From an uncultured Bacilli bacterium (GTDB lineage Bacteria; Bacillota_I; Bacilli_A; RF39; UBA660): a stretch of DNA of 64,000 nt. The stretch is from positions 26,990 to 90,989 of the forward strand of contig CAKOPC010000002.1 in the NCBI GenBank assembly GCA_934098705.1, written 5' to 3'. Below are positions 48,558 through 63,809 of this stretch, in pieces (position 1 is the first letter of the stretch; each line of letters opens with the position of its first letter). The notes below the pieces were generated by a model that saw only the letters and a list, made by a program, of their open reading frames with translations, had not been told where the DNA came from and ran no database searches. The position numbers and the translations under genes were made by a program.

Positions 48558-49577
48558 TTAGTCCATAAAATGTCCAAATTTTGCCAAATCTTCATAACAA
48601 ATATTTCTAAGATTTAAATCCTTAATAATATTCTTAGGTTTACACTCTTCATAAAACTTATCCAAAGTATCAATAACCCCTTTATCCGTTTCAATGTAAA
48701 TTGACACAGGTCTTTCAACACCTATTGCATAAGATATTTGAACCAAACACCAATTATATTCAGGATTATCCCTTAAAATTTCCTTGGCTATACTTCTTGC
48801 CTTATAAGCCCCACTTCTATCAACCTTACTAGGATCCTTACCGGAAAAAGCACCACCTCCGCACTTAGCGAAAGATTGATAACTATCAACAACAATTTTC
48901 CTACCAGTAAGTCCAGCATCTCCTAAAAAGCCCCCAATTAAAAACTTACCCGTTGGATTTATTAAATAATTCAAAACCTTAACACCATACTCCAAACAAA
49001 TATTATCACAAATACCAATAAGTATCTTATCAGTTTCATCTCTTTCCTTTTCAGTATTTTGGTAGCAAATGGTAAAAGTCTTTATATACTCTAACTTATT
49101 ATTTTCATAAAACCCAGTAATTTCAGCCTTACCATCAGATAAAAAACGCTTATCTCTTTTTCTTAATTCATCATAACACTTACTAAATTTTTGTAAAATA
49201 ACCATAGCAACAGGTAAATATTCACAAGTATCACGAGTTGCATATCCAAACATCATGCCATTATCTCCAGCACCCAAAAACTCCTCAGTAACACCTCTTG
49301 CAATATCTGGACTTTGTGTTCCAAGATTATTAATAATTTTATAACTATCATCATAACCAACATCTAAAAGAACCCTTTTAACAATTTTAGAAACATCGAA
49401 AACAGCCTTAGTTGTAACTTCTCCCGTTATAAAAATTTTACCCTTTCCTCCAACTACCTCAACAGCACACCTTGAAGTTTTATCTTGTTTTAAACACTCA
49501 TCTACAATAGCATCACTTATTTGATCACAAACCTTATCAGGATGACCTCTAAATACTATTTCATTACTATATAACAT
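48558..49577 (-). CDS. metK: S-adenosylmethionine synthetase (methionine adenosyltransferase), unusually short form
   Basis: 339 aa. N-terminal GHPDKVCDQISDAIVD, C-terminal GGGAFSGKDPSKVDRSGAYKAR; preceded by a SAM-I riboswitch. Confidence 0.85.
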   Translation of the reverse strand: MLYSNEIVFRGHPDKVCDQISDAIVDECLKQDKTSRCAVEVVGGKGKIFITGEVTTKAVFDVSKIVKRVLLDVGYDDSYKIINNLGTQSPDIARGVTEEFLGAGDNGMMFGYATRDTCEYLPVAMVILQKFSKCYDELRKRDKRFLSDGKAEITGFYENNKLEYIKTFTICYQNTEKERDETDKILIGICDNICLEYGVKVLNYLINPTGKFLIGGFLGDAGLTGRKIVVDSYQSFAKCGGGAFSGKDPSKVDRSGAYKARSIAKEILRDNPEYNWCLVQISYAIGVERPVSIYIETDKGVIDTLDKFYEECKPKNIIKDLNLRNICYEDLAKFGHFMD

Positions 49578-49604: not shown

Positions 49605-49740
49605 AAGAAAACACCCAAGATAACCTTTCTTGAGTGTTAAAAAAAGTTATCTTATTGATCTAGCATTACCACCTAATCAAATAGGTTGGTGCGACTTCAT
49701 AAGGCTAGTCCCTCCATCGCTCTTAATAAGATGTAACTAA
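49605..49740 (-). ncRNA. SAM-I (S-box) riboswitch with intrinsic terminator expression platform
   Basis: Minus-strand leader AUCUUAUUAAGAGCGAUGGAGGGACUAGCCUUAUGAAGUCGCACCAACC...GGUGGUAAUGCUAGAUCAAUAAGAU fits the S-box consensus. P1 is AUCUUAUU / AAUAAGAU. Then a terminator AACACUCAAGA-loop-UCUUGGGUGUU plus U-tract, ~25 nt before the metK RBS. The P1 3' strand can pair with the terminator 5' half as an antiterminator. Confidence 0.8.
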
Positions 49741-50452: not shown

Positions 50453-50654
50453 AAATATCTCTCCTTTTATATATAAATAATAACATATAACTTCAAAAAT
50501 ATCAAAAAAAAAACAATAACAATTTAGAAATTAAACAAATAAACATAAAAAATACAATAAAACAAACAAGAAAAAAACTTCCGCTTAATTAACAAAAAAA
50601 ATTAGATTGATAAAAATAATAATTAATAGTAAAATATTATTAGGAGATTTATAT

Positions 50655-50882
50655 ATGAAATACATCTTGATATTTTTTATAAAAGTTTATAAAGCACTTC
50701 CTGGTCCATGGCATGGTATGTGTAGATTTTATCCAACATGCTCAAGTTATGCCATTGAAGCATTAAATGAATATGGTTTTATAAAAGGTAGTATTATGTC
50801 AATAAAAAGAATTATAAGATGTAATCCCAAAAGTAAAATATGGTACGATCCTGTACCAAAAAATATTAAAAAAAAAGCATAG
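50655..50882 (+). CDS. yidD: Membrane protein insertion efficiency factor YidD
   Basis: 75 aa from ATG 50655 (RBS AGGAG at 50643). [29 protein letters not shown] is the conserved YidD core. The ORF-track start at 50607 lacks an RBS. Confidence 0.8.
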
Positions 50883-50896
50883 AAAAGGAGAAAAAA

Positions 50897-51766
50897 ATGA
50901 AAAAAGTAATATACTTAGCGATAATAGTAAGTTTATTTTTAACAACTGGTTGTCTTAAAATATTTAAATTATATGATATGGATGACATAGACATCATAAC
51001 AACAATATACCCAGTAGAATACGTTGCTAATAGAATATATGGTGAAAGTTCAAATATTTCAAGTATCTATCCAAGAGGAACAGATATAAATAAATACGAA
51101 TTAACAAAAAAACAAATAAAAGATTATAGTAACTACGACCTATTTATTTATAATGGTGAATCAAATGAAAGAAGTTACGCAACTAGCATGTTAAACAATA
51201 ATAAAAATTTAAAAATTATTGATGCTTCATATGGACTTGACGTTATAAATGCCAGCACCGATATATGGCTTAATCCATCAAATATTTTGATGATAGCACA
51301 AAATATAAAACAAGAATTAGGAGAGTACATACAAAGTGTATACGTAAAAGAAAAACTTGAAAATAATTATCAATTATTAAAAGTAGACATATCAGAGCTT
51401 GAAACAGAACTTAAAAAAACTGCTGACAATTCCAAAGATAAAAGAATAATATCTTATGATGAATCACTAATGTTTCTAGAAAAATACGGTTTTACAGTTG
51501 TTAACTTAACAGCAAAAGATAAAAACATTGATAACAATATTGAACTTGCTAAATCAATTTTAAATGATGAATTAACTTATGTTTTTGTAACAGAATTTCA
51601 AGAAGAAACTGATTTATTAAAAGAATTACAAGATAACTATAATGCAAAACTTGAAACTTTTAAAGTAATGACAACTATAACTGAAGAAGATGCAAATAAT
51701 AATGAAGATTATCTATCAATTATGAAAAGTAATATAACAAAAATAAAGGAAGAAACCTACAAATAG
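50897..51766 (+). CDS. Lipoprotein, metal ABC transporter substrate-binding protein-like (ZnuA/TroA-like), tentative
   Basis: 289 aa. Lipobox LTTGC, then IITTIYPVEYVANRIY resembling the N-terminus of cluster-9 metal SBPs. No adjacent ABC ATPase/permease, so function uncertain. Confidence 0.4.
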   Translation: MKKVIYLAIIVSLFLTTGCLKIFKLYDMDDIDIITTIYPVEYVANRIYGESSNISSIYPRGTDINKYELTKKQIKDYSNYDLFIYNGESNERSYATSMLNNNKNLKIIDASYGLDVINASTDIWLNPSNILMIAQNIKQELGEYIQSVYVKEKLENNYQLLKVDISELETELKKTADNSKDKRIISYDESLMFLEKYGFTVVNLTAKDKNIDNNIELAKSILNDELTYVFVTEFQEETDLLKELQDNYNAKLETFKVMTTITEEDANNNEDYLSIMKSNITKIKEETYK

Positions 51767-51781
51767 GAATCTTCCTTTTTC
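51746..51781. terminator. Bidirectional intrinsic terminator between the lipoprotein gene and hsp20
   Basis: 8-bp stem AAGGAAGA / TCTTCCTT with a 16-nt loop containing the TAG stop, followed by TTTTT. Confidence 0.45.
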
Positions 51782-51798
51782 ATATTTATGTAAATAAA

Positions 51799-52188
51799 TT
51801 AATCAATTTCAATTTTCTTTTTAGTGTCTACATTTTCCTTTTTAGGAACAATAACTCTTAACATACCATTGTTAAATTCTGCTTTAATAGAGTCTTCATT
51901 AGTGTCTCCAATATAGAATTGTCTCTTATAGCTTCCATAAACTCTTTCACGTCTTAAATATTTTTTACCTTCTTTTTCTTCATGTTTATGGCTAGATGTT
52001 GCAGTAATTGTTAAATATCCATTATCACAATCAATGTTTATATCCTCTTTCTTAAATCCAGGCACATCCATTTCAATATAATATTTATCGTCCTTTTCAT
52101 AAATATCACACTTCATGTTATTATTTTTAACCTCTGGTAAATCATCAAATAAATCATCTAAAAAGAAATTTCTTGGTACTAAATTCAT
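51799..52188 (-). CDS. Hsp20/alpha-crystallin family small heat-shock protein
   Basis: 129 aa. Alpha-crystallin domain (DIYEKDDKYYIEMDVPGFKKEDINID...GMLRVIVPK). Confidence 0.8.
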   Translation of the reverse strand: MNLVPRNFFLDDLFDDLPEVKNNNMKCDIYEKDDKYYIEMDVPGFKKEDINIDCDNGYLTITATSSHKHEEKEGKKYLRRERVYGSYKRQFYIGDTNEDSIKAEFNNGMLRVIVPKKENVDTKKKIEID

Positions 52189-52249
52189 AATTCATTCCTC
52201 CTTCGTACAATTATGTTATACCACTATTTTTGGCACTTGTCAAGAATAA

Positions 52250-52660
52250 GTGCTAAAAAAATTATTTTTTTTTACATACATTTATAGTATGAAACAAAAC
52301 AACAGAAATATACAACTTTTAAAAATAAATAAAGATGCCTTAATTCTTTTTATGGTAGCACTTATAATCTCTATTTATATAACAAACAATGATATTTTAC
52401 GCCTTGAAGGTAAAAGTAAAAAAGATACTTACACCCTTGAAATATTTAACAGATGCTTTGCAATTATTATCCTTTTAATTTTTCTATACACAAGTTATGA
52501 AAGTTATAAAATAGCTAAAAGTAATAATAAATATAATGAAACATTTACTATGCAAATTATCGTAGCTGTATTATCATTAATCGCAGGTATTATAGCATTT
52601 TATATAACATATATAAATAAAAATCAAAATATAAGTAGTGTATCAAATTTTGAAGTATAA
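52250..52660 (+). CDS. Hypothetical small membrane protein (3 TM helices)
   Basis: 136 aa; hydrophobic, no motif; true start may be the internal Met at ~52289. Confidence 0.35.
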   Translation: MLKKLFFFTYIYSMKQNNRNIQLLKINKDALILFMVALIISIYITNNDILRLEGKSKKDTYTLEIFNRCFAIIILLIFLYTSYESYKIAKSNNKYNETFTMQIIVAVLSLIAGIIAFYITYINKNQNISSVSNFEV

Positions 52661-52666
52661 GTATAA

Positions 52667-53440
52667 CTAATATATCTGTTTTTTTATTCTAACTAAAGCA
52701 TTCTTTTCAAGCCTTGATATTTGAGCTTGTGATATACCAAGTTCATTTGAAATTTCCATCTGTGTTTTACCAACAAAATATCTATCTTCCAAAATCTGTC
52801 TTTCCCTACTTGTTAATTTGCTAATTGCCTTAGTAAGTGTCATATGTTCTAAATGATCGTAAGAACTTTTAGGGTCGCTTACTTGATCACATAGATATAT
52901 TGTATCTCCGCCATCATTATAAATTGGTTCAAAAAGACTAACTGGAGGTATTAAAGCTTCAAGTGCATTAATAACTTCCCTTTCCTTTATTTCCAAAATT
53001 TTAGCTATTTCTTCATTTGTTGGTTCCTTCCCATTTTCTAAAGTTAATTTTTCCTTTAATTTAAGTACTTTATACGCTGTATCTTTTACACTTCTTGATA
53101 CTCTAATACTTGTATTATCTCTAATATATCTTTTCACTTCTCCAAGTATCATAGGAACAGCATAAGTTGACAACTTTACATTTAAACTTGGATCAAAATT
53201 ATCTATGGCCTTTACAAGTCCAATACACCCAATTTGAAATAAATCATCCAAATTTTCATTGTAAGTTTTAAAATTTTTCAAAATAGACAAAACAAGTTTT
53301 AAATTTCCATTTATAAGTTCTTCCCTTGCTAATTTATCTCCTTGTTTCATTCTTTTAAACAAAACTTCCATCTCTTCCTGTTTTAAAACTTTTAAACTAC
53401 TTGTATTTATACCAGATATTAAAACTTTATATTTAGACAT
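52667..53440 (-). CDS. sigG: Sporulation sigma factor SigG (forespore-specific sigma-70 family)
   Basis: 257 aa; alignable along its length with Bacillus SigG as recalled: KVLISGINTSSLKVLKQEEM, GDKLAREELINGNLKLVLSIL, DDLFQIGCIGLVKAIDNFD, STYAVPMILGEVKRYIRDN, IRVSRS, PVSLFEPIYNDGGD, GKTQMEISNELGISQAQISRLEK. Confidence 0.85.
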   Translation of the reverse strand: MSKYKVLISGINTSSLKVLKQEEMEVLFKRMKQGDKLAREELINGNLKLVLSILKNFKTYNENLDDLFQIGCIGLVKAIDNFDPSLNVKLSTYAVPMILGEVKRYIRDNTSIRVSRSVKDTAYKVLKLKEKLTLENGKEPTNEEIAKILEIKEREVINALEALIPPVSLFEPIYNDGGDTIYLCDQVSDPKSSYDHLEHMTLTKAISKLTSRERQILEDRYFVGKTQMEISNELGISQAQISRLEKNALVRIKKQIY

Positions 53441-53570
53441 ATTTATATTCCTTTCAACCTTAATAATGAAAAAAGAATATAAATTTTATGCAAAATTAAA
53501 ACATTTTACCATTTTTTATTCAAACTATTAAAATGGCAAAAAATAACAAATCTATAATTTATTAAAAAAA

Positions 53571-54760
53571 AGGTTTAACAAAAACTTTACAAGTATTTAT
53601 TAACCTTCTTTATCTCTTCATTAAGATTACTTTTTAATATATAATCTTTAAATCCATCTTCAATGTATTTTGAAACTAAAAACTTTTTATCATCATTAAT
53701 AGTTATTAATACTGGTGTTTTAAATTTTTTTATAGTTTGTAATTTCTTTAAAGTATCATATCCACTTTGAAGCCCCATCTCATCATCCACTATTATCATG
53801 TCATACTCTTCCCCATTTTTTATCTTCTCTATCGCACCTTTTCCATATAATACCATTGTTACATCTATACCAAGTTTTATTAATTGTTCCTCCATCTGTT
53901 TGGCTTCGTTTAGTTTTTCGTTTACTATTAATATTTTTCTTTTTCCTCTTGTATCTATTTGATTAAAATTTATTTTATCTTTATTTTCTTTTATTTTTTG
54001 GTCTATTATTATTAGGTACTCACTACCTTTATTTATTTCACTTCTTACTATTAATGTTCCTCCAAGTACTTTTATTATCTTATTTGCCATTTCTATTCCA
54101 ACATCTACTTTATCAAGTTTTTTAAAGTCTTCTTGTTCCATATAACTTGCACTTAATATCCTATTTACTTTCTCTATTGTCATACCACATCCTGAATCAC
54201 TTATTGATATTATTAATCTACATACATCATATTTTACTATGGAATTAACTTTTATTTCTATAAAACCTTTTTTTGTCTGCTTTAATGAATTATTTAATAT
54301 ACTAATTAACACTTGCTTTAATTTTACTTTATCACCATAAAGTTTGGCATCTATTAAATCTGTATAATTTGTTCTTAATTCAACATCACCTTGTATCTCT
54401 TCCTTTACTCTTTTTTCTATCTCTTTAAATAATAGTTTTACATCATAAAATCCAAGAGCCAATTTTATATTTGATATATCCATATTTGATATATCAAACA
54501 CATTATTTGCCAGAAGCATTAATTCTTTAGAACTTATATTTACTTGTTTTGCCATTTCTTTTAAGTTATCTTTATTATTTTCACTTATCATAAGATTACT
54601 TATATCTTGAATATTTTTTATTGGTTCCTTAGTTTTTTGTTGTAACTCAAATAATAAATTTAATTTTTCTTCATTTGTCTTTTCAATTAGTTTTCTATTT
54701 TCATTTAACGTTTCAATAACCTTTACATCTGGATTTTCTATTGTATGATACATAATAAAA
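53571..54760. repeat. Large direct repeat, copy 1 (~1.19 kb; 3' two-thirds of the hybrid kinase gene plus 16 bp of 3' flank)
   Basis: Near-identical to 57561..58750 (offset 3990 bp). Identity runs from AGGTTTAACAAAAACTTTACAAG just past the stop to ...CTTTACATCTGGATTTTCTATTGT at the TM/cytoplasmic boundary, with scattered substitutions (roughly 95% by eye). Confidence 0.8.
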
Positions 54761-55386
54761 GCAATAAATATAAGTACTGGATTTATCAAATAATTTAATG
54801 TAGGGTCAATAATCATCACAATAAGTATAGATATACCAAGTATTACAAGTACATAAACTGGAATATATTTTTTACTTTTTATATTTTTATAATTTAAAAG
54901 CACACACACAATTTGTGTAATAAGTCCAAGTCCAAATATAAAATATGTATACATAACAGAAATACCTTTAGATGTCGCAGCACTATTAGGATTTATAGTA
55001 ACTTCAATAGGAAATATTAAAACAACTAAAATACTAAAGATTCCCAAAATATAAAATATATTTTCTATCTGCCTCAATTTATCTTGTTTTTTTAAAGAAA
55101 CATATAAAATATAAAATGTAAATATAAATACCCATAAAAGAAGTCCAATTAAATAAAGTTTATTAAATAATGATACAACAAAAACACTACTTGTAACTTT
55201 TGAACTAACATATATACCAAGTAAAATACCACTGCAAGACATAAATATATTGGCAAGTAAAAACAGTGAATATAGATTATCTTCCATTTTCTTTAATCTC
55301 GGTTTGTTAAAAAACAGTATTGCAACTGCAATTATTACTAATAGTGCATAAAAATTAATACTTAAAAAACCTAAAACATTTTCCAT
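53587..55386 (-). CDS. Polytopic sensor histidine-kinase-like / receiver hybrid protein, copy B (no His at the H-box position)
   Basis: 599 aa. ~7 TM helices, DHp-like helix, HATPase_c (N-box LISILNNSLKQTKKG, G1 ISDSGCG, G2 GIEMANKIIKVLGGTL), C-terminal REC (DMIIVDDEMG ... VLITIND ... DYILKS). The canonical HE.RTP position reads FELQQKTKEP. Confidence 0.7.
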   Translation of the reverse strand: MENVLGFLSINFYALLVIIAVAILFFNKPRLKKMEDNLYSLFLLANIFMSCSGILLGIYVSSKVTSSVFVVSLFNKLYLIGLLLWVFIFTFYILYVSLKKQDKLRQIENIFYILGIFSILVVLIFPIEVTINPNSAATSKGISVMYTYFIFGLGLITQIVCVLLNYKNIKSKKYIPVYVLVILGISILIVMIIDPTLNYLINPVLIFIAFIMYHTIENPDVKVIETLNENRKLIEKTNEEKLNLLFELQQKTKEPIKNIQDISNLMISENNKDNLKEMAKQVNISSKELMLLANNVFDISNMDISNIKLALGFYDVKLLFKEIEKRVKEEIQGDVELRTNYTDLIDAKLYGDKVKLKQVLISILNNSLKQTKKGFIEIKVNSIVKYDVCRLIISISDSGCGMTIEKVNRILSASYMEQEDFKKLDKVDVGIEMANKIIKVLGGTLIVRSEINKGSEYLIIIDQKIKENKDKINFNQIDTRGKRKILIVNEKLNEAKQMEEQLIKLGIDVTMVLYGKGAIEKIKNGEEYDMIIVDDEMGLQSGYDTLKKLQTIKKFKTPVLITINDDKKFLVSKYIEDGFKDYILKSNLNEEIKKVNKYL

Positions 55387-55422
55387 ATAACACTAACCTT
55401 CTTTTTATCCATTTTTATTCTT

Positions 55423-57402
55423 TTATTTTCTTTTTCTAACTAAATCTTTTGTTTCATTTTGATAAATATCTATGGTAGATGTAGAAAGATTTGTTTCCGC
55501 TACAACAACATTAACAATATCATCATCTGTTAAATCATCTTTTCTTAATGAAACAAAATCCATCTTTCCATTTTTAGTTTGTGGAATAGAAGTTCTAAAT
55601 TTAAATTTTGATGGAATTTGTCTTGATGACATATCTTTGTTTGCTAAAATATCATTATAAACAATATCATTAACAACACTTATATAATCTTCATTTTTAT
55701 ACTCATCATTTAAAACAATATGACAAGCTGGCATTAAACCTCTTCTTTTTTCATCAAAATATTCAACAATACATACATATTTAACTTTTTCATTTTTAGC
55801 TATTTCTTTTTCAACTTCATATGGTTTTATTTTATAACCATCAAATCTTGCAAAAGATCTATCTTTTCTTGATTTATGATAGAATTTTCCTTCTTCATCC
55901 ATTTCCACTAAATCTCTTGTTCTAATATATGTCTTTCCATCAAGTTCATATTGTGGAATAATAACATTTTCATCTAAAACACCTTTTGTTACATTATCTC
56001 CAGATACAGCAAGTTCTCCAAAAGTTCTACCATTATGATTTATAGGAACTCTAACAAGTCTATCTTCAATATTTGGGTCAACTAATGTAAAGTCAGTGTG
56101 AGGAAGTGGTATTCCAATACATTCATAATCATTATAAGCACCTTGTGCATAAGAACCGCAACCAAAGAACTCACTCATACCATAACCCTTAGTTACAGTA
56201 CAAGAACTACCATGTTTTCTAAAGAATTTATTTAATTCCTCTTCATCCTTTGCAGTCATAGTATCTCCACCATAAATAGCAACCTTTACACAAGATAAAT
56301 CTTCACCCTCTAAATAATCACAAGTTGTAAGTGAATGTAATAGTGATGGTGAAATCATAATTACATTTGGATGATATTTTTTTATTAAATATCCAAATTC
56401 ACTTATCTCAAACTCTGGAACATCAATGTTATTAGCAAGGCTTGTCAAATTCATTAAATAATTATTATAAGCTCCAAATGGTGCAAAAAATGGTAAAACA
56501 TGAAGTGCTGTATCACCCTCATCAAAATTTACAAGTCCTTGTTTTAACTGTTCTAATGTTGATATAGCATTTTTATGTGTTCCAGGTATTGGTTTTGGTC
56601 TTGTACCACTTGTACCTGATGTATGTCCTATATATTGTAAACCATCTAAATTTCTATAAACAGTAAAACGTGAATTTTGAACGTTTCTTTTTAAATCATC
56701 ATAAAACATTATATTTAGTTTTGAAGAAGCCATAGCATCATTTAAAGTACCCTCTTGTTGTTTCATCATTTGCACTTTTTCAAGTAATGCTTGATACCAT
56801 TTTAACTTATTAATATTATCTAAAACATGTCTTTTATTTTTTAAATCATTATAATTAATGACATCTTTCATATAACTAATTTTTCCACCAAGATTCATAG
56901 AATCAGTAGCTCTTAAAAGAACAACATCACGTATTCCATATGATAAAAGTTCTTCTTCTACTGGTTTTATCATCGCCATATAACACATATCAAGAGCAAC
57001 TATATATTTTGGATGTTCAAATTTTACTATTTCAAGTAACTTATTTCCATTAGCTTTAGCATCCATACTATCTGGTCTTGGATCGATAAAATCAGATACT
57101 GCTCCAATTTGAGCAGAACCAAGCCATAATTCTCCTACTTCTGGAATATTTGGAACTAAATATAAAATTCTATCTCCAACTCCAACACCCATTTCAGTAA
57201 GTACTCTAGATGCTTTATCAGCATTATAAAATAATTCTCCATAAGAAGTTTCCTTGCCATAATAAGTTTCTGCTGTTAAATCTTTCTTATTTCTTGCTAT
57301 ATTTTCTAAATATTTTTTAATGTTTAAATCAACATAATTTTGTCTTTCTATTGGATAATTTTTATAAAAATTCATCCAAGGCATATTTTCATTTTTATTC
57401 AT
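55423..57402 (-). CDS. Adenylate-forming enzyme (AMP-binding / ANL superfamily), copy B
   Basis: 659 aa. AMP-binding core motif YIGHTSGTSGTRPKPIPGTHKN (T[SG]GT.G.PK), a second Gly-rich motif, C-terminal domain; substrate unknown. Confidence 0.75.
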   Translation of the reverse strand: MNKNENMPWMNFYKNYPIERQNYVDLNIKKYLENIARNKKDLTAETYYGKETSYGELFYNADKASRVLTEMGVGVGDRILYLVPNIPEVGELWLGSAQIGAVSDFIDPRPDSMDAKANGNKLLEIVKFEHPKYIVALDMCYMAMIKPVEEELLSYGIRDVVLLRATDSMNLGGKISYMKDVINYNDLKNKRHVLDNINKLKWYQALLEKVQMMKQQEGTLNDAMASSKLNIMFYDDLKRNVQNSRFTVYRNLDGLQYIGHTSGTSGTRPKPIPGTHKNAISTLEQLKQGLVNFDEGDTALHVLPFFAPFGAYNNYLMNLTSLANNIDVPEFEISEFGYLIKKYHPNVIMISPSLLHSLTTCDYLEGEDLSCVKVAIYGGDTMTAKDEEELNKFFRKHGSSCTVTKGYGMSEFFGCGSYAQGAYNDYECIGIPLPHTDFTLVDPNIEDRLVRVPINHNGRTFGELAVSGDNVTKGVLDENVIIPQYELDGKTYIRTRDLVEMDEEGKFYHKSRKDRSFARFDGYKIKPYEVEKEIAKNEKVKYVCIVEYFDEKRRGLMPACHIVLNDEYKNEDYISVVNDIVYNDILANKDMSSRQIPSKFKFRTSIPQTKNGKMDFVSLRKDDLTDDDIVNVVVAETNLSTSTIDIYQNETKDLVRKRK

Positions 57403-57474
57403 AAAACAACCACCTCTAATAAAAAATTTTGTCTGTTAGTATATCACAATTTTATAATAAATTATAAAACATGG

Positions 57475-57512
57475 CATATTCGGTTAAAATAGCACCATAT
57501 TCTGCAAATATA
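57475..57512. promoter_or_regulatory. Doubled operator-like motif upstream of adenylate-forming enzyme gene B
   Basis: GCATATTCGGTTAAAATA (57474-57491) and CCATATTCTGCAAATATA (57495-57512), 21 bp centre-to-centre, 73-110 bp upstream of the ATG at 57402. Matches the motif pair at 61459-61498. Confidence 0.45.
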
Positions 57513-57560
57513 CCCCTCTTTTTTCTATAAATAATATATCATATAAAATAAAAAAAAGAA

Positions 57561-58750
57561 AGGTTTAACAAAAACTTTACAAGTATTTATTAACCTTCTT
57601 TATCTCTTCATTAAGATTACTTTTTAATATATAATCTTTAAATCCATCTTCAATGTATTTTGAAACTAAAAACTTTTTATCATCATTAATAGTTATTAAT
57701 ACTGGTGTTTTAAATTTTTTTATAGTTTGTAATTTCTTTAAAGTATCATATCCACTTTGAAGCCCCATCTCATCATCCACTATTATCATGTCATACTCTT
57801 CCCCATTTTTTATCTTCTCTATCGCACCTTTTCCATATAATACCATTGTTACATCTATACCAAGTTTTATTAATTGTTCCTCCATCTGTTTGGCTTCGTT
57901 TAGTTTTTCGTTTACTATTAATATTTTTCTTTTTCCTCTTGTATCTATTTGATTAAAATTTATTTTATCTTTATTTTCTTTTATTTTTTGGTCTATTATT
58001 ATTAGGTACTCACTACCTTTATTTATTTCACTTCTTACTATTAATGTTCCTCCAAGTACTTTTATTATCTTATTTGCCATTTCTATTCCAACATCTACTT
58101 TATCAAGTTTTTTAAAGTCTTCTTGTTCCATATAACTTGCACTTAATATTCTATTTACTTCCTCTACTCCAATACCACATCCTGAATCACTTATTGATAT
58201 TATTAATCTACATACATCATATTTTACTATAGAGTTTACCTTTATTTCTATAAAACCCTTTTTAGTTTGTTTTAATGAATTATTTAATATACTAATTAAT
58301 ACTTGTTTTAATTTTACTTTATCGCCATAAAGCTTGGCATCTATTAAATCTGTATAATTAGTCCTTAACTCAACATCACCTTTTATCTCTTCCTGTACTC
58401 TTTTTTCTATTTCTTTAAATAATAGTTTTACATCATAAAATCCAAGAGCTAACTTTATATTTGATATATCCATATTTGATATATCAAATACATTATTTGA
58501 TAAAAGCATTAATTCTTTAGAACTTGTATTTACCTGTTTTGCCATTTCTTTTAATTTCTCTTTATTATTTTCATTTAACATAAGATTACTTATATCTTGA
58601 ATATTTTTTATTGGTTCTTTAGTTTTCTGTTGTAACTCAAATAATATATTTAGCTTTTCTTCATTTGTTTTATCAATTAGTTTTCTATTTTCATTTAATA
58701 TTTCAATAACCTTTACATCTGGATTTTCTATTGTAAAATACATAATAAAT
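57561..58750. repeat. Large direct repeat, copy 2
   Basis: See copy 1. Similarity ends abruptly where the N-terminal sensor-domain coding regions begin. Confidence 0.8.
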
Positions 58751-59364
58751 AAAACAAAAGATTCAGTAACCGTAATCATTGTAAAACCTGGATATATTTT
58801 TTGAATTACTGAAGCAACACCAAGTCCTACAATTAAAACAATAAGTGGTAAATATTTTCTTATTTTTAATGATTTATAATTTTTTGCCATAAAATAAATA
58901 CTTACAACTATAGAAATTAATGAAGCAACATAAGTTGCAACAATAGATGGCCCTTTAGAATACATATATTTATCAATAACTATATTAAGAGGAAGCACAA
59001 TAATTAATACTGAAAAGATAGAGGTGAATATCAAAATATAATTTGAAATTCTTTTTTCATGTATTTCATAGTTTTCATTTCCTAATGAAACACATATTGC
59101 ATATTTTAAAAACAAAGTACAAAAGAAAAGTAAATACAATAAGTAAGACTTATTAACTAATAAATTAAAGAAACTATCTGGATTTGAGTACAAACCATTA
59201 TAAATACATAAAAGTTCAATTAAAAGTCCAAATATATTTAAACTAAGAAGATTATTAAATATATTAAGTTCGTAAGAATCAATGTGTTTCTTTTTCTTAT
59301 ACATAAATGTCAAAACAATAATGTATAAAAGACTCATAATTAAAAAGTGAGAACTATTATTCAT
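57577..59364 (-). CDS. Polytopic sensor histidine-kinase-like / receiver hybrid protein, copy A (no His in the DHp region)
   Basis: 595 aa. Divergent N-terminal 6-7 TM sensor region; from FTIENPDVKV onward nearly identical to copy B, with the last ~230 aa identical. The only His of copy B's linker (HTIENP) is Phe here. Confidence 0.7.
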   Translation of the reverse strand: MNNSSHFLIMSLLYIIVLTFMYKKKKHIDSYELNIFNNLLSLNIFGLLIELLCIYNGLYSNPDSFFNLLVNKSYLLYLLFFCTLFLKYAICVSLGNENYEIHEKRISNYILIFTSIFSVLIIVLPLNIVIDKYMYSKGPSIVATYVASLISIVVSIYFMAKNYKSLKIRKYLPLIVLIVGLGVASVIQKIYPGFTMITVTESFVLFIMYFTIENPDVKVIEILNENRKLIDKTNEEKLNILFELQQKTKEPIKNIQDISNLMLNENNKEKLKEMAKQVNTSSKELMLLSNNVFDISNMDISNIKLALGFYDVKLLFKEIEKRVQEEIKGDVELRTNYTDLIDAKLYGDKVKLKQVLISILNNSLKQTKKGFIEIKVNSIVKYDVCRLIISISDSGCGIGVEEVNRILSASYMEQEDFKKLDKVDVGIEMANKIIKVLGGTLIVRSEINKGSEYLIIIDQKIKENKDKINFNQIDTRGKRKILIVNEKLNEAKQMEEQLIKLGIDVTMVLYGKGAIEKIKNGEEYDMIIVDDEMGLQSGYDTLKKLQTIKKFKTPVLITINDDKKFLVSKYIEDGFKDYILKSNLNEEIKKVNKYL

Positions 59365-59425
59365 GAAATTACACTTCCTTTATTTTACAAGTAAATTATA
59401 TCACAAAGTCAAAAAAAAGAAAATC

Positions 59426-61390
59426 TTATTTCGTTAAGATTCTCTTCATTTCTTTTTTATCTTTATTATTTTTTAAATCTTCGTAAGAATTATAAACATC
59501 TCTTGCTAAAACACACTTATTAGAAATACCTTCCTCAATTAAAGCTAAAAAGCTTCTTTTTAGAGTTGGAGATATAACAAATGATTCTTTATTATCTCTT
59601 ACTCTAAAATATAATTTATCTAAAACATCTGCTCCAAAAGCTTTAACACATCTATTTAATGCTGAATATAAAACTTTATCTTTATCAAATGAAACATTAA
59701 TTTGTGGTTCAATATGAGCTACATATTTTACATTACCATTATCATTTACAGTTACAACTTCACAAGACATAATCTTTTTAGTATCTTTTAAAATTTCATT
59801 AGCTATTTTATAATTTGGAATATTTCCATCTCTATTACTTATTCTACCCTTTACATAAATATGTGAAAACTTATCAATATAACCATATACATTTAAGTTA
59901 GCCCAAGTTTTTCCATAAGCATCTTTAATAAAGAACGCCTTATCTCCTTCTTTATTATTTACATAACCTTCCATAGTACATGGTGAATTAGCAACAAGAT
60001 TACCTGGTTCCATAAAATCACAATATGTACCATCTTTCCTTAAGGCTTTTATATTAACCATTCCATATGTTGACATACCAACAGGTTCTTTTATACCAAA
60101 ATTTTTAAATAATTTAGTCTGCAAAGCTCTATACATTGTAATAAAAATACCACCATGCTCAGAGTCCCCCCCTGCTATACTCATACATACAACAGATGTT
60201 GGAAGTTTTATAATATCACGTCCTGCATCAAGACTTCTAAGCCATTTATTTAGTACTTTTTCTTCATTTGCATCAAGACCTTCACCAATACACATAGGGC
60301 ATATTAAAAACGGAAGTTTAATATTTTTATATCTAGGATCCCACATTTGTTTTTTCATATTATAAATAAATACTGATCTTGAAGTTAAAAATACATTAGG
60401 TTTATTAATTAAAAGTGATTCGAATATAAAATCTTTATCGTTTATAGGTTCAAGAGCAACTATACCACTTTGCATAGCAACATCACTTACTCCAGACATA
60501 AAATCAGTATCAGACATTGTTCTAACTAAAGATAACATAACCATACCCTTCATAGATGGTATTTTAGATATTTCACTATCATGATATCTTCCCATAGTAA
60601 TATAACTTCTTACTCTATGAACTAATCCTTTTGGTTTATTTGAAATAGTAGAACCACTTGTATAAGTTGTTGTAAAGTCGCTATCAAGTGTTGTTACATC
60701 ATAAATTTCTCCCTTTACATTATCACCCTTAGTCAAAAATTCATCAAATGACATAATATTATCAAATGAAGATAAAGTATCATTATAAGATTTTTCATCC
60801 AATTTATAAAATTTATCAGTTATTTGAGCATATGGATTGCCATTTTTTAATGAATGATTAAGTGGAATAGGAATTATTGTTTTAGGAACCTCTAACATCT
60901 TTAACGTTTCACTAAATGAAACAAAATTCTTATCACTTACAAATATTAAATTAGATGTTGCATTATCAACAATATTTTTTAAATATTCATGATCCATATC
61001 TGCTGCTAAAAGATTAACTCTAGCACCAATTATACTTGCAGCACCCATTATAAATGGAAATTCAGGTGTATTTTCAAGACAACATACAATTTCCTCTCCC
61101 TTTTTTACACCATTTGCCTTCAATGCTTTAGCATACTTATATGAATAAGCAAAAAAATCTTTATAAGAAAAATTAGTACCTCTATATTTTATATAAGGTG
61201 CCTCCAAATTATTTTTATTTCTTTCCCATACTTCTTTAATCCAAGACCAATTATGATTTTCATCAATATCTTTTAATATTTTTTGATTTTTCTTATTACA
61301 ATCACTACTATCATAATAATTATTATTTGGCATGCTCTTAACTTTTTCTATTTCTAAAACAAAATTTTTAAACAATTCTTCATTTTTCAT
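59426..61390 (-). CDS. Adenylate-forming enzyme (AMP-binding / ANL superfamily), copy A (divergent paralog of 55423..57402)
   Basis: 654 aa. AMP-binding core motif YTSGSTISNKPKGLVHRV; similar length and domain order to copy B but strongly diverged in sequence. Confidence 0.7.
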   Translation of the reverse strand: MKNEELFKNFVLEIEKVKSMPNNNYYDSSDCNKKNQKILKDIDENHNWSWIKEVWERNKNNLEAPYIKYRGTNFSYKDFFAYSYKYAKALKANGVKKGEEIVCCLENTPEFPFIMGAASIIGARVNLLAADMDHEYLKNIVDNATSNLIFVSDKNFVSFSETLKMLEVPKTIIPIPLNHSLKNGNPYAQITDKFYKLDEKSYNDTLSSFDNIMSFDEFLTKGDNVKGEIYDVTTLDSDFTTTYTSGSTISNKPKGLVHRVRSYITMGRYHDSEISKIPSMKGMVMLSLVRTMSDTDFMSGVSDVAMQSGIVALEPINDKDFIFESLLINKPNVFLTSRSVFIYNMKKQMWDPRYKNIKLPFLICPMCIGEGLDANEEKVLNKWLRSLDAGRDIIKLPTSVVCMSIAGGDSEHGGIFITMYRALQTKLFKNFGIKEPVGMSTYGMVNIKALRKDGTYCDFMEPGNLVANSPCTMEGYVNNKEGDKAFFIKDAYGKTWANLNVYGYIDKFSHIYVKGRISNRDGNIPNYKIANEILKDTKKIMSCEVVTVNDNGNVKYVAHIEPQINVSFDKDKVLYSALNRCVKAFGADVLDKLYFRVRDNKESFVISPTLKRSFLALIEEGISNKCVLARDVYNSYEDLKNNKDKKEMKRILTK

Positions 61391-61458
61391 ACATTATTCC
61401 CCCTTAACAAAAGTTAACTGCTATTATAACACTTTAATAAAAAAATTTCAAATTAAAG

Positions 61459-61498
61459 CCATATTCTGTCAAAATAAGGTCGCATTCTGTCAAAAATA
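61459..61498. promoter_or_regulatory. Doubled operator-like motif in the divergent intergenic region (adenylate-forming enzyme gene A <- -> radical SAM gene)
   Basis: CCATATTCTGTCAAAATA (61459-61476) and CGCATTCTGTCAAAAATA (61481-61498), 21-bp period, 70-108 bp upstream of the ATG at 61390. Consensus with the 57.5-kb copy: ATATTCTGtcAAAATA. Confidence 0.45.
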
Positions 61499-61584
61499 AT
61501 CTTTAATTTACAAATATATAATAACATTATCTAAATAAAAATTCAAATAAATATGTTATAATAACTAAAAAAGGTGATGTTTTT

Positions 61585-62478
61585 ATGGAAAAAGAATTTT
61601 TAAACTGCAATCTATGTCCTAGAAATTGTAATATAAATAGATATGAAACATTAGGTTTTTGCATGGCTCCCCCTAAAATAAAAATAGCAAAAGCAGACTT
61701 ATTCTTTTATGAAGAACCTTGTATTTCTGGTAGTAATGGTAGTGGTGCTATATTTTTTTCACACTGCAATTTAAAATGTATATTTTGTCAAAATTATGAA
61801 ATATCAACAAATAATATAGGGAAAGAAATAACTATAGATAAATTTAGTGATATTATGATTAATCTTCAAAATAAAGGGGCACTAAATATAAATTTAGTAA
61901 CACCAACTATGTATATACCATTAATTAAAAAAGGAATTATAAAAGCCAAAGAAAAAGGTCTTAATATACCTATTATATATAATACAAGTGGTTATGAAAA
62001 TGTTGAAGCTTTAAAAACACTTGATGGACTTATTGATGTATATCTTCCTGATTTTAAGTATTATAATGATAATCTTGCTTATAAATATTCAAATACAAAA
62101 AACTATAAAGAAACTGTTAAAAGTGCAATAGAGGAAATGTACAAACAAACAGGTAAAATAACATTTGATAAAAATGGCATAATTAAAAAAGGCGTTATTG
62201 TAAGACACTTAATGCTTCCTAATATGGAAGATGATTCTAAAAAAATTATCGAATACTTGTATAAAAAATACAAAGATAATATCTTTTTAAGTATAATGAA
62301 CCAGTATACTGTAATAAAACCTTTAAAGTATGAAGAATTAAATAAAACTATAGAGGAAAAAGTATATGATGATGTAATAAACTATGCTTATGACCTTGGC
62401 ATACGTAATGCTTATATTCAGGAAGGTGGAACACAAAAAAAGAGCTTTATTCCTGATTTTAAAAATCAAGAATTCTAA
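61585..62478 (+). CDS. Radical SAM protein with N-terminal Cys-rich extension (PflX-like / putative glycyl-radical-enzyme-activase-like family)
   Basis: 297 aa. N-terminal C.LCPR.C...R.....G.C pattern (CNLCPRNCNINRYETLGFC) followed by radical SAM CxxxCxxC (HCNLKCIFCQN); RBS AAAGG upstream. Confidence 0.65.
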   Translation: MEKEFLNCNLCPRNCNINRYETLGFCMAPPKIKIAKADLFFYEEPCISGSNGSGAIFFSHCNLKCIFCQNYEISTNNIGKEITIDKFSDIMINLQNKGALNINLVTPTMYIPLIKKGIIKAKEKGLNIPIIYNTSGYENVEALKTLDGLIDVYLPDFKYYNDNLAYKYSNTKNYKETVKSAIEEMYKQTGKITFDKNGIIKKGVIVRHLMLPNMEDDSKKIIEYLYKKYKDNIFLSIMNQYTVIKPLKYEELNKTIEEKVYDDVINYAYDLGIRNAYIQEGGTQKKSFIPDFKNQEF

Positions 62479-62529
62479 GCTCAAATCTATATTAACGCTA
62501 AAATGGTAGCAGTTAGCGTCTACACTATC

Positions 62530-63143
62530 TTATGGCATATAGTATGTTTTTGTTCCACTTTTAAGATCAAATATTATAGAACCATACTTACTTGTTTCAA
62601 AATATGTTAAATTAAGCTTATTTAAACTATCAATAGTTTCCTTTGAAGGATGATTATATTTATTATTAAAAGATGCAGATATGATGGAATATTTAGGATT
62701 TGTTACCCTTAAAAAATCATAAGAACTACTCGTATTTGAACCATGATGTGCTAACTTTAAAATATATAAAGAAGATAAATCATAATTATTAATTAAATCC
62801 TCTTCAACACTTTTAGGTATATCCCCAGTAAATAGCATCTTTTTATTATACATATTTAAATATAAAACAATACTTGATGAGTTTTCATCATTATTATTTT
62901 TATTCAAACTATATAATTTTATACCATTAAAATCAATTATATTACCTTTATATAATTTTTTAACTGGTATTTTTTTAAACTTGATGCCTTAATAAGTTTA
63001 TTTTCCAAATAATTTAGCTTATTACTGTTAATATATATGTTATCTATTTTAAAATTATTAACCAAATAAATACTATCTCCCATATGATCATAATCTCCAT
63101 GTAGTTGTTGTAAAAAAGTAAGTCGAATAAAAAGAACTATCAA
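62530..63143 (-). pseudogene. Remnant of a ComEC/Rec2-type metallo-beta-lactamase domain, split into two ORFs and lacking the N-terminal channel domain
   Basis: ORF 63143..62937 carries LHGDYDHMGD (HxHxDH). ORF 62907..62530, in a different frame, carries MLFTGDI ... KLAHHGSNTSSS ... NKYNHPSKETI, typical of the ComEC C-terminal MBL domain. An A7/T7 homopolymer at 62961-62967 lies in ORF 1 (63143..62937), ~25 nt before its stop, i.e. upstream of the frame break on the minus strand. Confidence 0.5.
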
Positions 63144-63161
63144 AGCTGATAATTCCTATTT

Positions 63162-63809
63162 CTATAATTTTTTATTTTTTTGTGATTGTTTGACTGTTTC
63201 AAATATGTGATTTGCATCTTGCTTTAACAAATCTGGATTCTTAACGTATTCTAACAATTTTTCTTTAGAATAATTTTCTAGCATGTATTTTCCTAAAGTA
63301 TATGAGTAACTATACCCGTTTTCTGTTCCATTAAAATCACTTTTTAATTTTTCAAAATCACAATATTCTAAACTAACTGGTGAATAATCTTGATTACTTA
63401 GATTAGTTGCCAATGCTTCCCAATACCAACTAACACCCTTAGAATTTTCATTCCACTCTTGCTGACATGAATGCACAAACTCATGTAGTATGCATTTTAT
63501 AAATTCTTCCATATCCATATCTTCATGTTCTTTAGATTTTCTTGCTTCAGACATTTCTAACAAGTTAATATTACCATCATATGTATCAGCACACATCCAT
63601 TCTTTAAATTCTTTTACAAATGGCAACAAATGTTTCTTGTATTTTTCTCTATCAGTAAAAATCACTACTTTCTTTTTTTGAGAAAGTTTTTCAAGTTCAA
63701 AAAATTCTAAAATTTCAATGGTATTGTTTTCTAATGTTGAAATTATATTTGACATATAATCAATCTCTTTGTCATATTCAATAGTAAAATTACTAAGTTC
63801 GATTTTCAT
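63162..63809 (-). CDS. Hypothetical protein with HExxH zinc-metallopeptidase-like motif
   Basis: 215 aa; ILHEFVHSCQQEW ... WEALA suggests a gluzincin-type HExxH...E arrangement; no further family assignment possible. Confidence 0.4.
   Translation of the reverse strand: MKIELSNFTIEYDKEIDYMSNIISTLENNTIEILEFFELEKLSQKKKVVIFTDREKYKKHLLPFVKEFKEWMCADTYDGNINLLEMSEARKSKEHEDMDMEEFIKCILHEFVHSCQQEWNENSKGVSWYWEALATNLSNQDYSPVSLEYCDFEKLKSDFNGTENGYSYSYTLGKYMLENYSKEKLLEYVKNPDLLKQDANHIFETVKQSQKNKKL

Follow-up and report, generated by a model that had tools for sequence, protein, structure and literature searches.

Two paralogous genes in the 64-kb window (the entire stretch of DNA that was analysed) encode membrane proteins with the organization of a sensor kinase but with a Gln in place of the phosphorylated His. 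In the most likely reading, their products act as histidine pseudokinase receptors which signal through protein contacts, and we consider the chances about even that both have in this way been derived from seven-transmembrane-helix (7TM) hybrid sensor kinases of the HisKA type. This reading is supported because the replacement of the acceptor His by Gln is conserved, because the loss of the G2 glycines nearly always accompanies it and because an HPt gene is absent. The earlier note on this DNA had offered a pseudokinase, a Ser/Thr/Tyr kinase or a scaffold as candidates, of which the pseudokinase or otherwise non-classical reading is supported and that of an anti-sigma serine kinase is not. Judged from sequence comparison, a non-phosphorylating receptor has probably arisen in this family from a functional sensor kinase, and its gene is nearly always found beside that of an acyl-activating enzyme.

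Both open reading frames, for which the initial calls and coordinates were correct, are located on the minus strand, as are all features described below. Copy B (53587..55386) encodes a protein of 599 residues and copy A (57577..59364) its paralogue of 595 residues. Genes of ANL (AMP-binding) enzymes are found 36 nt upstream of copy B (ANL1, 55423..57402; Pfam PF00501, 1.9e-38) and 61 nt upstream of copy A (ANL2, 59426..61390). Both kinase-like proteins show the layout of a hybrid HisKA kinase, in which seven TM helices are followed by a DHp hairpin, a CA domain and a receiver (REC). In copy B, as defined by Pfam, an AF2 model (pLDDT 80) and Foldseek, the 7TM domain (residues 1-215, 54742..55386), containing an extracellular beta-hairpin at residues 127-141, is followed by a TIENPD junction motif (54727..54744; 58717..58734 in copy A), the DHp (residues 219-297), the CA domain (residues 312-465) and the receiver (residues 484-598, 53593..53937). 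The DHp hairpin does form in the predicted structure, with helices at 219-268 and 272-297 and Gln 250 residing in DHp alpha-1. HATPase_c and Response_reg are the only Pfam domains detected in either protein; the scan gave no HisKA match, with the DHp remaining below threshold, whereas the His-type paralogues do match HisKA. The homology of the DHp to HisKA is evident from HMMER alignments to RetS, GacS and HK853, which run through this region. The best matches of solved structure are histidine kinases, RetS and DivL among them, and Foldseek matches of the copy B model include ShkA, WalK, HK853, RetS and DivL. The proteins do not fit the HPK10 or AgrC type either, whose members are polytopic TM sensors with a non-HisKA H-box, a CA domain of the HATPase_c_5 kind and no receiver: here, DHp and CA can be aligned with kinases of the HisKA type, Pfam assigns the CA domain to HATPase_c (PF02518) and the chain ends in a receiver. 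Residues 1-220 gave zero Pfam matches at E values up to 1, and no Pfam model of the known bacterial 7TM sensor domains (7TMR-DISM, 5TMR-LYT, MASE and others) matched the 7TM domain, whose predicted fold is GPCR-like at the structural level only.

The absence of a phospho-acceptor His in both proteins, proposed in the earlier note, is borne out by three independent alignments, which all place a Gln at this position. In a phmmer search of the PDB, ELQ-Q-KTKEP pairs with KIS-H-EIRTP of RetS; a profile of 77 family sequences places 'klsQEikkP' over 'NMSHEIRTP' of GacS (H293) with high posterior probability; and an ungapped alignment to His-bearing paralogues of the same architecture pairs FLSSMSHEIRTPL with LLFELQQKTKEPI. 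Together, these alignments identify the second Gln as the residue at the acceptor position, which is Q250 in copy B (54637..54639), within the degenerate H-box LFELQQKTKEPIKNI (54610..54654), and Q246 in copy A (58627..58629; H-box 58600..58644), with synonymous codons in the two copies (CAA in B and CAG in A). Of the two residues initially suggested for this site, Gln thus stands and Phe does not. The canonical motif H-E-x-x-T/N-P is found in neither copy; the H-box reads Q-K-T-K-E-P and so lacks the E and T/N residues of the phosphatase motif as well. A census of His residues agrees with the claim that copy A lacks any past its TM region (its only ones, at 6, 27 and 102, are all in TM segments) and that copy B contains a single linker His, H214 in YHTIENPD, which is the only His of this protein. 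Since family members have H, F, N, L or Y in this column, H214 is not a conserved alternative acceptor. By composition alone, a cytoplasmic half free of His would have a P of about 0.02, and the stronger argument comes from the family-wide conservation of the loss.

In the earlier note, the N, G1 and G2 boxes and the receiver Asp appeared intact, which for the ATP-binding domain and the receiver is right only in part. In copy B, the N box (VLISILNNSLKQT, 54274..54312), with its LNNSLK motif, has kept its Asn and the G1 box (DSGCG, 54184..54198) is retained as well, whereas the G2 box anchoring the ATP lid (54085..54111) reads KVDVGIEMA in place of the GTGLGLAIT of His-type relatives, with the lid glycines lost. 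Similarly, where the receiver of a canonical kinase would show DD, D57, T87 and K109, the acceptor Asp D57 (in IIVD), T87 and K109 are kept (D534, T562 and K585 of copy B) but the acidic pair, which constitutes the metal-binding position, has changed to N-E (N489-E490). With D57, T87 and K109 kept, the receiver may still be phosphorylated by an outside donor. Within 207 aligned family members, the N-box Asn is found in 196, the Asp of G1 in 206 and its two Gly in 199 and 202, and N-box Asn and G1 DxGxG are more than 95% conserved in those without His, which makes some nucleotide binding or ATPase activity conceivable. Changes of G2-box Gly to Ala in GacS abolish ATP binding, and RetS, with its degenerate G2 box, is reported to have lost it (PMC8498467). 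From the loss of the motif and the comparison with both proteins, we infer that ATP binding is probably poor or lost here as well. In keeping the histidine kinase fold while losing the acceptor His and ATP-binding residues, both proteins match histidine pseudokinases, in which either or both of these are gone.

The family to which both proteins belong is uncharacterised, with members from uncultured low-GC gut Bacilli, and carries TIENPD as its signature. A search of species-representative genomes with this pattern gathered at least 585 loci, and at 50% identity the family falls into 640 clusters; 71 full-length representatives came from an independent search that used the TM domain only. The motif is invariant in family alignments and near-invariant in the 71 representatives, three of which show conservative T/I changes. 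At the acceptor position, the 207 members contain Q (140), H (22) and N (22), with S, A, G, T, E and others being rare, and the pairing of Q with a following E or D is strongly conserved. The loss of the His is thus conserved among homologues, in 185 of the 207 members and 49 of the 71 representatives (Q 30, H 22, N 6), and roughly two thirds of the family share the replacement by Gln. This loss coincides with that of other catalytic features. All 22 His-type members of the larger set have an intact G2 box and an intact receiver, whereas G2 is degenerate in all 185 others, 131 of which also have a degenerate receiver and 54 a fully canonical one. Among the 71 representatives, G2 is intact in 20 of the 22 His-bearing proteins, and in the two exceptions (P0196 and P0251) G2 is degenerate despite the His. 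An HPt, either fused or encoded downstream, was found at 14 of 16 His-type loci compared to 0 of 64 His-less loci, and the window contains no HPt ORF and no other HK or REC ORF.

The ancestral form survives in the His-bearing relatives (such as P0083, L067 and L079), which are 37-40% identical to copy B over their full length. These share the 7TM domain, TIENPD, the overall length and usually an upstream ANL or acyltransferase gene, but differ by a Pfam match to HisKA, the sequences SHEIRTP and GTGLGL, a canonical receiver (DD/D/K) and an HPt or HPt-REC gene that follows or is fused. With the latter, the set forms a complete phosphorelay, and these proteins are presumably active kinases. In the lineage of the window, the acceptor His has been replaced by Gln, the G2 glycines have been lost, the receiver has eroded from DD to N-E and the HPt is absent.

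RetS from Pseudomonas aeruginosa (PDB 6DK7, 6DK8 and 7N0E) is the best sequence match of solved structure, covering DHp and CA with an E value of about 1e-14. It resembles the two proteins in its hybrid architecture with receiver domains and in a degenerate G2 box and ATP lid (SHLGL), and itself signals by DHp-DHp contacts instead of autophosphorylation, as the two proteins might in a similar manner. Conversely, RetS retains the H-box His (KISHEIRTP), which has a role in the dephosphorylation of GacS, contains a periplasmic sensor domain and two receivers, is proteobacterial, lacks an ANL partner gene and has a known target kinase, GacS, whereas none is evident for the proteins of the window. 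The resemblance raises the question of whether these could modulate a canonical kinase pathway, either that of a His-type paralogue or of another HK, through DHp heteromers in which trans-autophosphorylation is prevented and/or with the receiver as phosphate sink for an HPt or HK. Besides the match to a kinase region with degenerate G2 box and lost ATP binding (PMC8498467), such a role would be consistent with the canonical receiver in 54 of the 185 His-less members, with the conservation of D57, T87 and K109 in the window and with the 77-100% identity that tandem paralogues maintain in their cytoplasmic halves, a condition favourable to mixed dimers. We nevertheless regard it as unlikely, in light of the missing HK, REC and HPt partners in the window, the lack of HPt genes at the 64 His-less loci, the degeneration of most His-less receivers, among which those of a large subclade have K or R in place of D57, and the 1:1 pairing with ANL genes, which it leaves unexplained. 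Among the best 80 loci, no assembly contributes both a His-type and a His-less one, which is a weak argument as it covers these 80 loci only and metagenome-assembled genomes are incomplete.

Precedents for a pseudokinase acting through contacts come from other bacteria. In PsmA, a hybrid histidine pseudokinase from Streptomyces, the H-box His is replaced by residues that vary among orthologues and include Gln, the E/DxxT/N phosphatase motif is lost and autokinase activity is absent, with the protein acting via protein interaction; it is confined to Streptomycetaceae, cytoplasmic, polar and bound to DivIVA, and has neither a 7TM domain nor an ANL partner (PMC12963549). A His-bearing sister clade with HPt partner is not described for PsmA. 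DivL from Caulobacter, which is among the fold and sequence matches of the window proteins, and RocA from group A Streptococcus are also HK-derived pseudokinases that regulate by contacting other members of two-component systems. The protein bound by DivL is DivK~P, and RocA, devoid of a functional CA domain, acts on CovS; neither is known to have the receiver and 7TM architecture or an ANL operon partner.

The earlier note had likened the proteins, as His-less GHKL ATPases next to a sporulation sigma factor, to anti-sigma serine kinases of the SpoIIAB/RsbW type. A SigG gene (NCBIfam NF006071, 374.7 bits at a cutoff of 372) is located 146 nt downstream of copy B. That they would be another type of kinase, either a Ser/Thr/Tyr kinase or such an anti-sigma factor acting on SigG, also finds some backing in the conserved N-box Asn and G1 DxGxG and in proteins such as DivL, with a Tyr at its acceptor site, or plant subfamily-2 ethylene receptors and phytochromes, which act as Ser/Thr kinases. 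However, no sigma factor gene is found within 6 kb at 80 homologous loci, in a relative of 58% identity (L081) the SigG orthologue does not adjoin the kinase-like gene because a GT2 glycosyltransferase gene intervenes, and none of eight scanned flanking ORFs (50607..52660 and 61585..63809) matches a STAS or anti-anti-sigma protein. The link to SigG is local synteny only, and the SpoIIAB-like proposal is thus unsupported. SpoIIAB and RsbW are small single-domain GHKL proteins with intact N, G1 and G2 boxes, whose conserved operon also encodes a STAS protein and the cognate sigma factor, an arrangement that is absent here, where 599 residues form a 7TM-DHp-CA-REC protein. GHKL protein kinases (SpoIIAB, RsbW, PDK) keep G2, an ATP-lid motif required by GHKL serine kinases, whose glycines are gone in each of the 185 His-less members; a Gln at the acceptor site is not phosphorylatable and the conserved neighbour is an ANL gene. 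We thus consider this explanation largely refuted and its truth very improbable.

The two copies do not count as independent observations. Their TM halves are 31% identical and their cytoplasmic halves 96%, and a block of 591 nt (53569..54159, corresponding to 57559..58149) that runs from the last part of CA through REC and the stop codon to 18 nt past it is 100% identical, which is the result of gene conversion; the stretch next upstream is 92% identical. Tandem pairs in four genomes display a similar pattern, with 24-39% identity in the TM halves and 77-100% in the cytoplasmic halves, and in three of the four the respective ANLs are 18-28% identical. The genes are not decaying, as both ORFs are intact with about 600 residues, the Gln codons differ synonymously and copies of 96-99% identity are found in other assemblies. 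Purifying selection (dN/dS of 0.13 between copies over DHp and CA residues 211-415) preserves the operon partner as well as 7TM domain, TIENPD hinge, DHp hairpin and CA fold. That the genes would be non-functional relics, left by duplication of a real kinase and decaying without selection for any function, could account for catalytic losses in H-box, G2 and receiver and for the varying acceptor residue (Q, N, S, T, A, G, E or K), but is hardly credible in view of hundreds of intact ORFs of about 600 residues in many species, the low dN/dS, the invariant TIENPD, the conserved N and G1 boxes and operon partner and His-less clusters that outnumber the His-type.

As histidine pseudokinase receptors, both proteins would have lost the capacity for His autophosphorylation, and their binding of ATP would probably be weak or absent, as reported for RetS. 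Their 7TM domain may still bind a membrane-borne or extracellular ligand, which is probably hydrophobic or acyl-like, and the ensuing conformational change would run via TIENPD into the DHp coiled coil to result in a protein-protein contact instead of phosphotransfer. As the most likely target, the ANL enzyme encoded just upstream might be recruited or gated at the membrane. Each pair of ANL and 7TM domain could then constitute one specificity unit, with the homogenised cytoplasmic halves serving as common dimerisation and scaffold module that may permit mixed dimers. A further-reaching and rather less likely possibility is a new class of receptors in gut Bacilli with reduced genomes, where a 7TM domain of GPCR fold would be joined to a non-phosphorylating DHp-CA-REC scaffold of kinase origin that directly recruits or gates a dedicated enzyme. 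If true, there would be one receptor per adenylate-forming or acyl-transfer enzyme, independent of transcription factor or phosphotransfer, and the paired units would diversify while recurrent gene conversion keeps the scaffold identical, which would let paralogues assemble into mixed receptor arrays.

An ANL gene on the same strand less than 400 nt upstream is found at 51 of 60 loci whose kinase-like gene lacks the His and at 10 of 16 where it is present, and a PlsC-type acyltransferase takes its place in 7 further loci. This adjacency also fits plain co-regulation, following the usual logic of a sensor beside its target gene. In 64 pairs, ANL identity correlates with that of the TM domain (rho 0.38, partial 0.37) and not with that of the cytoplasmic half (rho 0.11, partial 0.05). 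ANL divergence thus tracks the TM half, which may reflect shared ancestry and a conversion limited to the cytoplasmic part instead of co-adaptation. ANL1 contains the core motifs A3, A5, A7, A8 and A10, and its closest relatives in the PDB are 4-coumarate-CoA ligase, DltA and fatty-acyl-CoA synthetases. ANL2 shares 18-25% identity with ANL1, a value that varies with the alignment used, and its A7 Asp is not alignable. Genes of polytopic proteins that handle or sense acyl compounds are located beside fatty-acyl-activating ANL genes also in RpfC/RpfB from Xanthomonas and Aas/LplT from E. coli, where RpfC is an active hybrid kinase with HPt domain and LplT an MFS transporter. Both may be analogous in function, and the parallel to Aas is supported by the PlsC-type acyltransferase genes in some of the homologous loci.

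The two kinase-like proteins, copy B (53587..55386, minus strand, 599 aa) and copy A (57577..59364, minus strand, 595 aa), are each preceded by a gene encoding an AMP-binding protein of the ANL superfamily, with ANL1 (55423..57402, minus strand) located 36 nt upstream of copy B and ANL2 (59426..61390, minus strand) 61 nt upstream of copy A. HATPase_c and Response_reg were the sole Pfam matches in both copies, neither of which matched HisKA, and their transmembrane (TM) domains matched no family in either Pfam or NCBIfam. On the level of NCBIfam models, both proteins resemble the hybrid kinases TorS, ArcB, LuxQ and BarA, all scoring far below curated cutoffs, and a PADLOC search of both copies and their partner proteins returned no defence-system match. 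An H-box helical hairpin (DHp) is seen in an AlphaFold2 model of copy B (alignment of 77 sequences, mean pLDDT of 80), a structure prediction being among the checks that the earlier note had proposed. In this model, seven TM helices with a short extracellular β-hairpin (residues 4–215) are followed by a helix break (I216–N218), the two-helix hairpin of the DHp (219–268 and 272–297), an α/β ATPase (CA) domain (312–465) and a receiver (484–598). A Foldseek search of the PDB with this model returned the histidine kinases ShkA, WalK, HK853, RetS and DivL. With a His-type kinase and an HPt-REC protein as queries, no two-component parts other than the two copies were found in the 64-kb window. A promoter and terminator scan of 52500..61800 gave counts at chance level for AT-rich DNA, so that the operon structure is not definable from it; its top promoter-like site (61451..61423, 11/12 matches, with TG) lies upstream of ANL2.

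The position of the phospho-acceptor was defined by three independent alignments. A phmmer search against the PDB places ELQ-Q-KTKEP of copy B opposite KIS-H-EIRTP of RetS, the family profile aligns 'klsQEikkP' with high posterior probability to 'NMSHEIRTP' of GacS, whose acceptor is H293 (PMC8498467), and a gap-free alignment is obtained with full-length paralogues whose H-box is canonical (FLSSMSHEIRTPL vs LLFELQQKTKEPI). The residue at this position is Gln, namely Q250 in copy B (codon CAA, 54637..54639, minus strand) and Q246 in copy A (codon CAG, 58627..58629, minus strand), and a residue census found no His in copy A beyond residue 102. Together, the alignments and the census show that the core observation of the earlier note, the absence of the acceptor His from both copies, was correct. 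As alternative acceptor we considered H214, the sole cytoplasm-proximal His of copy B, and rejected it, the position being occupied by Phe in copy A and by H, F, N, L or Y across the family. The same note had described the G2 box of the CA domain as intact, whereas the window proteins in fact contain the sequence KVDVGIEMA where His-type relatives carry GTGLGLAIT. Its description of an intact receiver holds for D57, T87 and K109, which are kept, but not for the acidic pair DD, which is changed to N-E.

Both proteins are members of a large family. A word-indexed protein search yielded more than 1600 matches, the best 120 of which are all about 600 aa long and align over their full length. By scanning one genome per species for the pattern [YF][HF]TIENPD, at least 585 loci were confirmed, often several per genome, which nearly all originate from MAGs of uncultured gut organisms with the label Bacilli, 'Tenericutes', 'Mycoplasma sp.' or Erysipelotrichaceae. 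Queried with only the TM domain, an exhaustive HMMER search resulted in 640 clusters at 50% identity (258 at E up to 1e-10), with a kinase-like architecture found in every full-length representative. The TIENPD motif at the junction between the TM and cytoplasmic halves is invariant in aligned family members and near-invariant among these representatives.

The family exists in two states. The acceptor column of 207 aligned members contains Q in 140, H in 22 and N in 22 cases, the remainder being S, A, G, T, E and others. All 22 His-type members combine GTGLGL with a DD/D/K receiver, whereas the G2 region of all 185 non-His members contains fewer than three Gly, and 131 of the latter have a non-canonical receiver too. 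A neighbour-joining tree built on the cytoplasmic region groups the His-type members in one clade. Independent representatives from the TM-domain search carry Q in 30, H in 22 and N in 6 cases, with an intact G2 box in 20 of the 22 His-bearing proteins. Among the best 80 of the at least 585 loci, 14 of 16 His-type vs 0 of 64 non-His loci have a Pfam-confirmed HPt, either downstream of the kinase or as a fusion with it. In the simplest reading, the His-type proteins work as kinases of a phosphorelay, and the non-His members, both window genes included, have altogether lost autokinase chemistry. The HPt occurs either stand-alone (~118 aa), as HPt-REC protein (~260 aa) or fused to the kinase; its gene is located just downstream in the homologous loci L048, L058, L065, L067, L068, L072 and L074 and is part of a fusion in L059 and L079. 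Two representatives, P0196 and P0251, are exceptions with an acceptor His and a degenerate G2 box, which may be intermediates or Gln-to-His reversions; in P0196, the receiver is degenerate as well and the H-box resembles that of the window's clade (LLFELSHEVREPL).

The two copies share a block of 591 nt at 100% identity (53569..54159 = 57559..58149), comprising the end of the CA domain, the receiver, the stop codon and 18 nt past it. The ~600 nt preceding this block are about 92% identical, compared to only about 53% in the 630 nt coding for the TM domain and 18–25% between ANL1 and ANL2. Due to the identity of their last 591 nt and the ~92% in the preceding part, copies A and B are not independent evidence. 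This mosaic is seen again in the loci L024, L034 and L063. In these tandem pairs and that of the window, the TM halves are 24–39% and the cytoplasmic halves 77–100% identical, while the ANLs (compared in the window, L024 and L034) share 18–28% identity. Concerted evolution of the cytoplasmic half is thus recurrent and points to repeated gene conversion, with the TIENPD junction as its limit.

To count partners of the receptor, we used those of the best 80 loci (of the at least 585) whose sequence extends at least 2 kb upstream. Less than 400 nt separate the receptor from the end of an upstream, same-strand ANL gene in 51 of 60 non-His loci and in 10 of 16 of the His type. The position of the ANL is taken by a PlsC-type acyltransferase (PF01553) in four non-His and three His-type loci, and in two of these three an ANL gene is found just past the acyltransferase. 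The presence of PF01553 genes beside the receptor hints at a module that might, by analogy to Aas, handle acyl or lipid substrates. Such genes replace or accompany the ANL in L028 (5099..5950), L046, L064, L063 (7908..8942) and L079 (4326..5891, HAD + acyltransferase); a search of the 64-kb window with PlsC-like queries found no such gene. ANL1, in which the core adenylation motifs are kept, most resembles 4-coumarate-CoA ligase, fatty-acyl-CoA synthetases and DltA. ANL2 has diverged much further (Pfam E of 5.5e-20 vs 1.9e-38) and, since the conserved Asp of A7 is unmatched in the family alignment (NLNV vs T.D), may itself be catalytically altered. In 64 ANL-receptor pairs, ANL identity correlates with TM-domain identity with a Spearman coefficient of 0.38 (partial 0.37), compared to 0.11 (partial 0.05) for the cytoplasmic domain; given the phylogenetic non-independence of the pairs, these effect sizes are no more than indicative.

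With high confidence, we regard copies A and B as histidine pseudokinases. In their derived state, the His is changed to Gln, the G2 box is lost and the HPt absent, while the 7TM domain, the hinge, the DHp and the folds of the CA and receiver domains are kept and the ANL or acyltransferase partner is conserved and varies in step with the TM half. We infer that autophosphorylation on His is absent and that the proteins signal by contacts with other proteins and changes of conformation. They probably bind ATP weakly or not at all, as judged by the precedents of GacS, where ATP binding is abolished when Gly residues of the G2 box are changed to Ala, and RetS, where it was lost (PMC8498467); the lid of RetS is degenerate in a similar way as in copies A and B. 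In the mechanism that we prefer, which is tentative, the pseudokinase would be coupled to its own ANL enzyme: the scaffold would sense a ligand through its 7TM domain and, at the membrane, recruit or gate the enzyme. The pair of ANL and 7TM domain would act as specificity unit.

The main alternative, which we consider unlikely, is a RetS-like protein acting as modulator or phosphate sink on another kinase pathway. It is weakened by the absence of HK, HPt and REC genes nearby, by receivers that are mostly degenerate and by the fact that His-type and His-less loci were never found together in one assembly among the best 80 of the at least 585, and it leaves the pairing with the ANL unexplained. 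That the proteins would instead be kinases of another type is highly improbable, and so is their interpretation as relics, as copies A and B are under purifying selection and not dead genes: their ORFs are intact, 96–99% identical copies are present in other assemblies, dN/dS amounts to 0.13 in the 92%-identical DHp/CA stretch (residues 211–415), the acceptor Gln codon differs synonymously, and in His-less members the Gln followed by Glu/Asp, the N-box Asn and the DxGxG of the G1 box are all strongly conserved.

Histidine pseudokinases are an established kind of protein, with DivL, RocA, in part RetS and recently the hybrid pseudokinase PsmA as examples, which to our knowledge are the few cases that were individually studied. 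Like the window family, PsmA is a hybrid protein in which different orthologues carry different acceptor residues, Gln among them (PMC12963549). Our literature searches on the family, on 7TM kinases with ANL partners and on RF39 lipid metabolism found no description of the family. New are its very large and paralogue-rich nature, the survival of a His-type sister state with HPt inside one family, the near-obligate pairing with an ANL or acyltransferase and the gene conversion that has recurred in the cytoplasmic half. The same family holds a phosphorelay state, with His, G2 box, canonical receiver and HPt, and a pseudokinase state, where all four were lost together. With both side by side in hundreds of natural examples and a few intermediates, it offers a natural experiment on the repurposing of sensor kinases, and the near-obligate pairing suggests that sensing at the membrane is directly tied to acyl or lipid metabolism, and supplies concrete candidate partners. 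The hosts are uncultured low-GC gut Bacilli, whose genomes appear small (the two complete chromosomes in the set measure 1.2 and 1.5 Mb) and presumably encode few regulators; the GC content of the organism is about 25% and its relatives are labelled as Bacilli, Tenericutes or Mycoplasma MAGs. Family genes are currently annotated as 'ATP-binding protein' or hybrid kinase only, and genome surveys should exclude the His-less ones from counts of functional two-component kinases.

Downstream of copy B, a gene encodes a sporulation sigma factor of the SigF/G family (52667..53440, minus strand; NCBIfam SigG 374.7 bits vs a cutoff of 372), which had suggested a likeness to the anti-sigma factors SpoIIAB and RsbW. 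A search for sigma and STAS genes, both in the window and around the homologous loci, found none that is conserved, and we rejected this idea. No sigma gene is located within 6 kb at any of the best 80 of the at least 585 loci, a glycosyltransferase gene separates the receptor from a 77%-identical SigG orthologue in the relative L081 (receptor 58% identical) and none of eight scanned flanking ORFs of the window matches STAS, leaving the analogy unsupported. On the other side of the locus, a 125-aa ORF (62530..62907, minus strand) matches only residues 576–665 of the 695-aa ComEC at the syntenic position of L081 (47% identity), which form the HHGS region of its metallo-beta-lactamase part, and is probably a truncated comEC remnant; the adjoining 215-aa ORF (63162..63809) has no Pfam match. 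An Rfam scan of the window identified only a tRNA and a SAM riboswitch, both outside the locus, the latter an ordinary S-box element (RF00162, 63.6 bits, 49649..49732, minus strand) upstream of metK (48558..49577).
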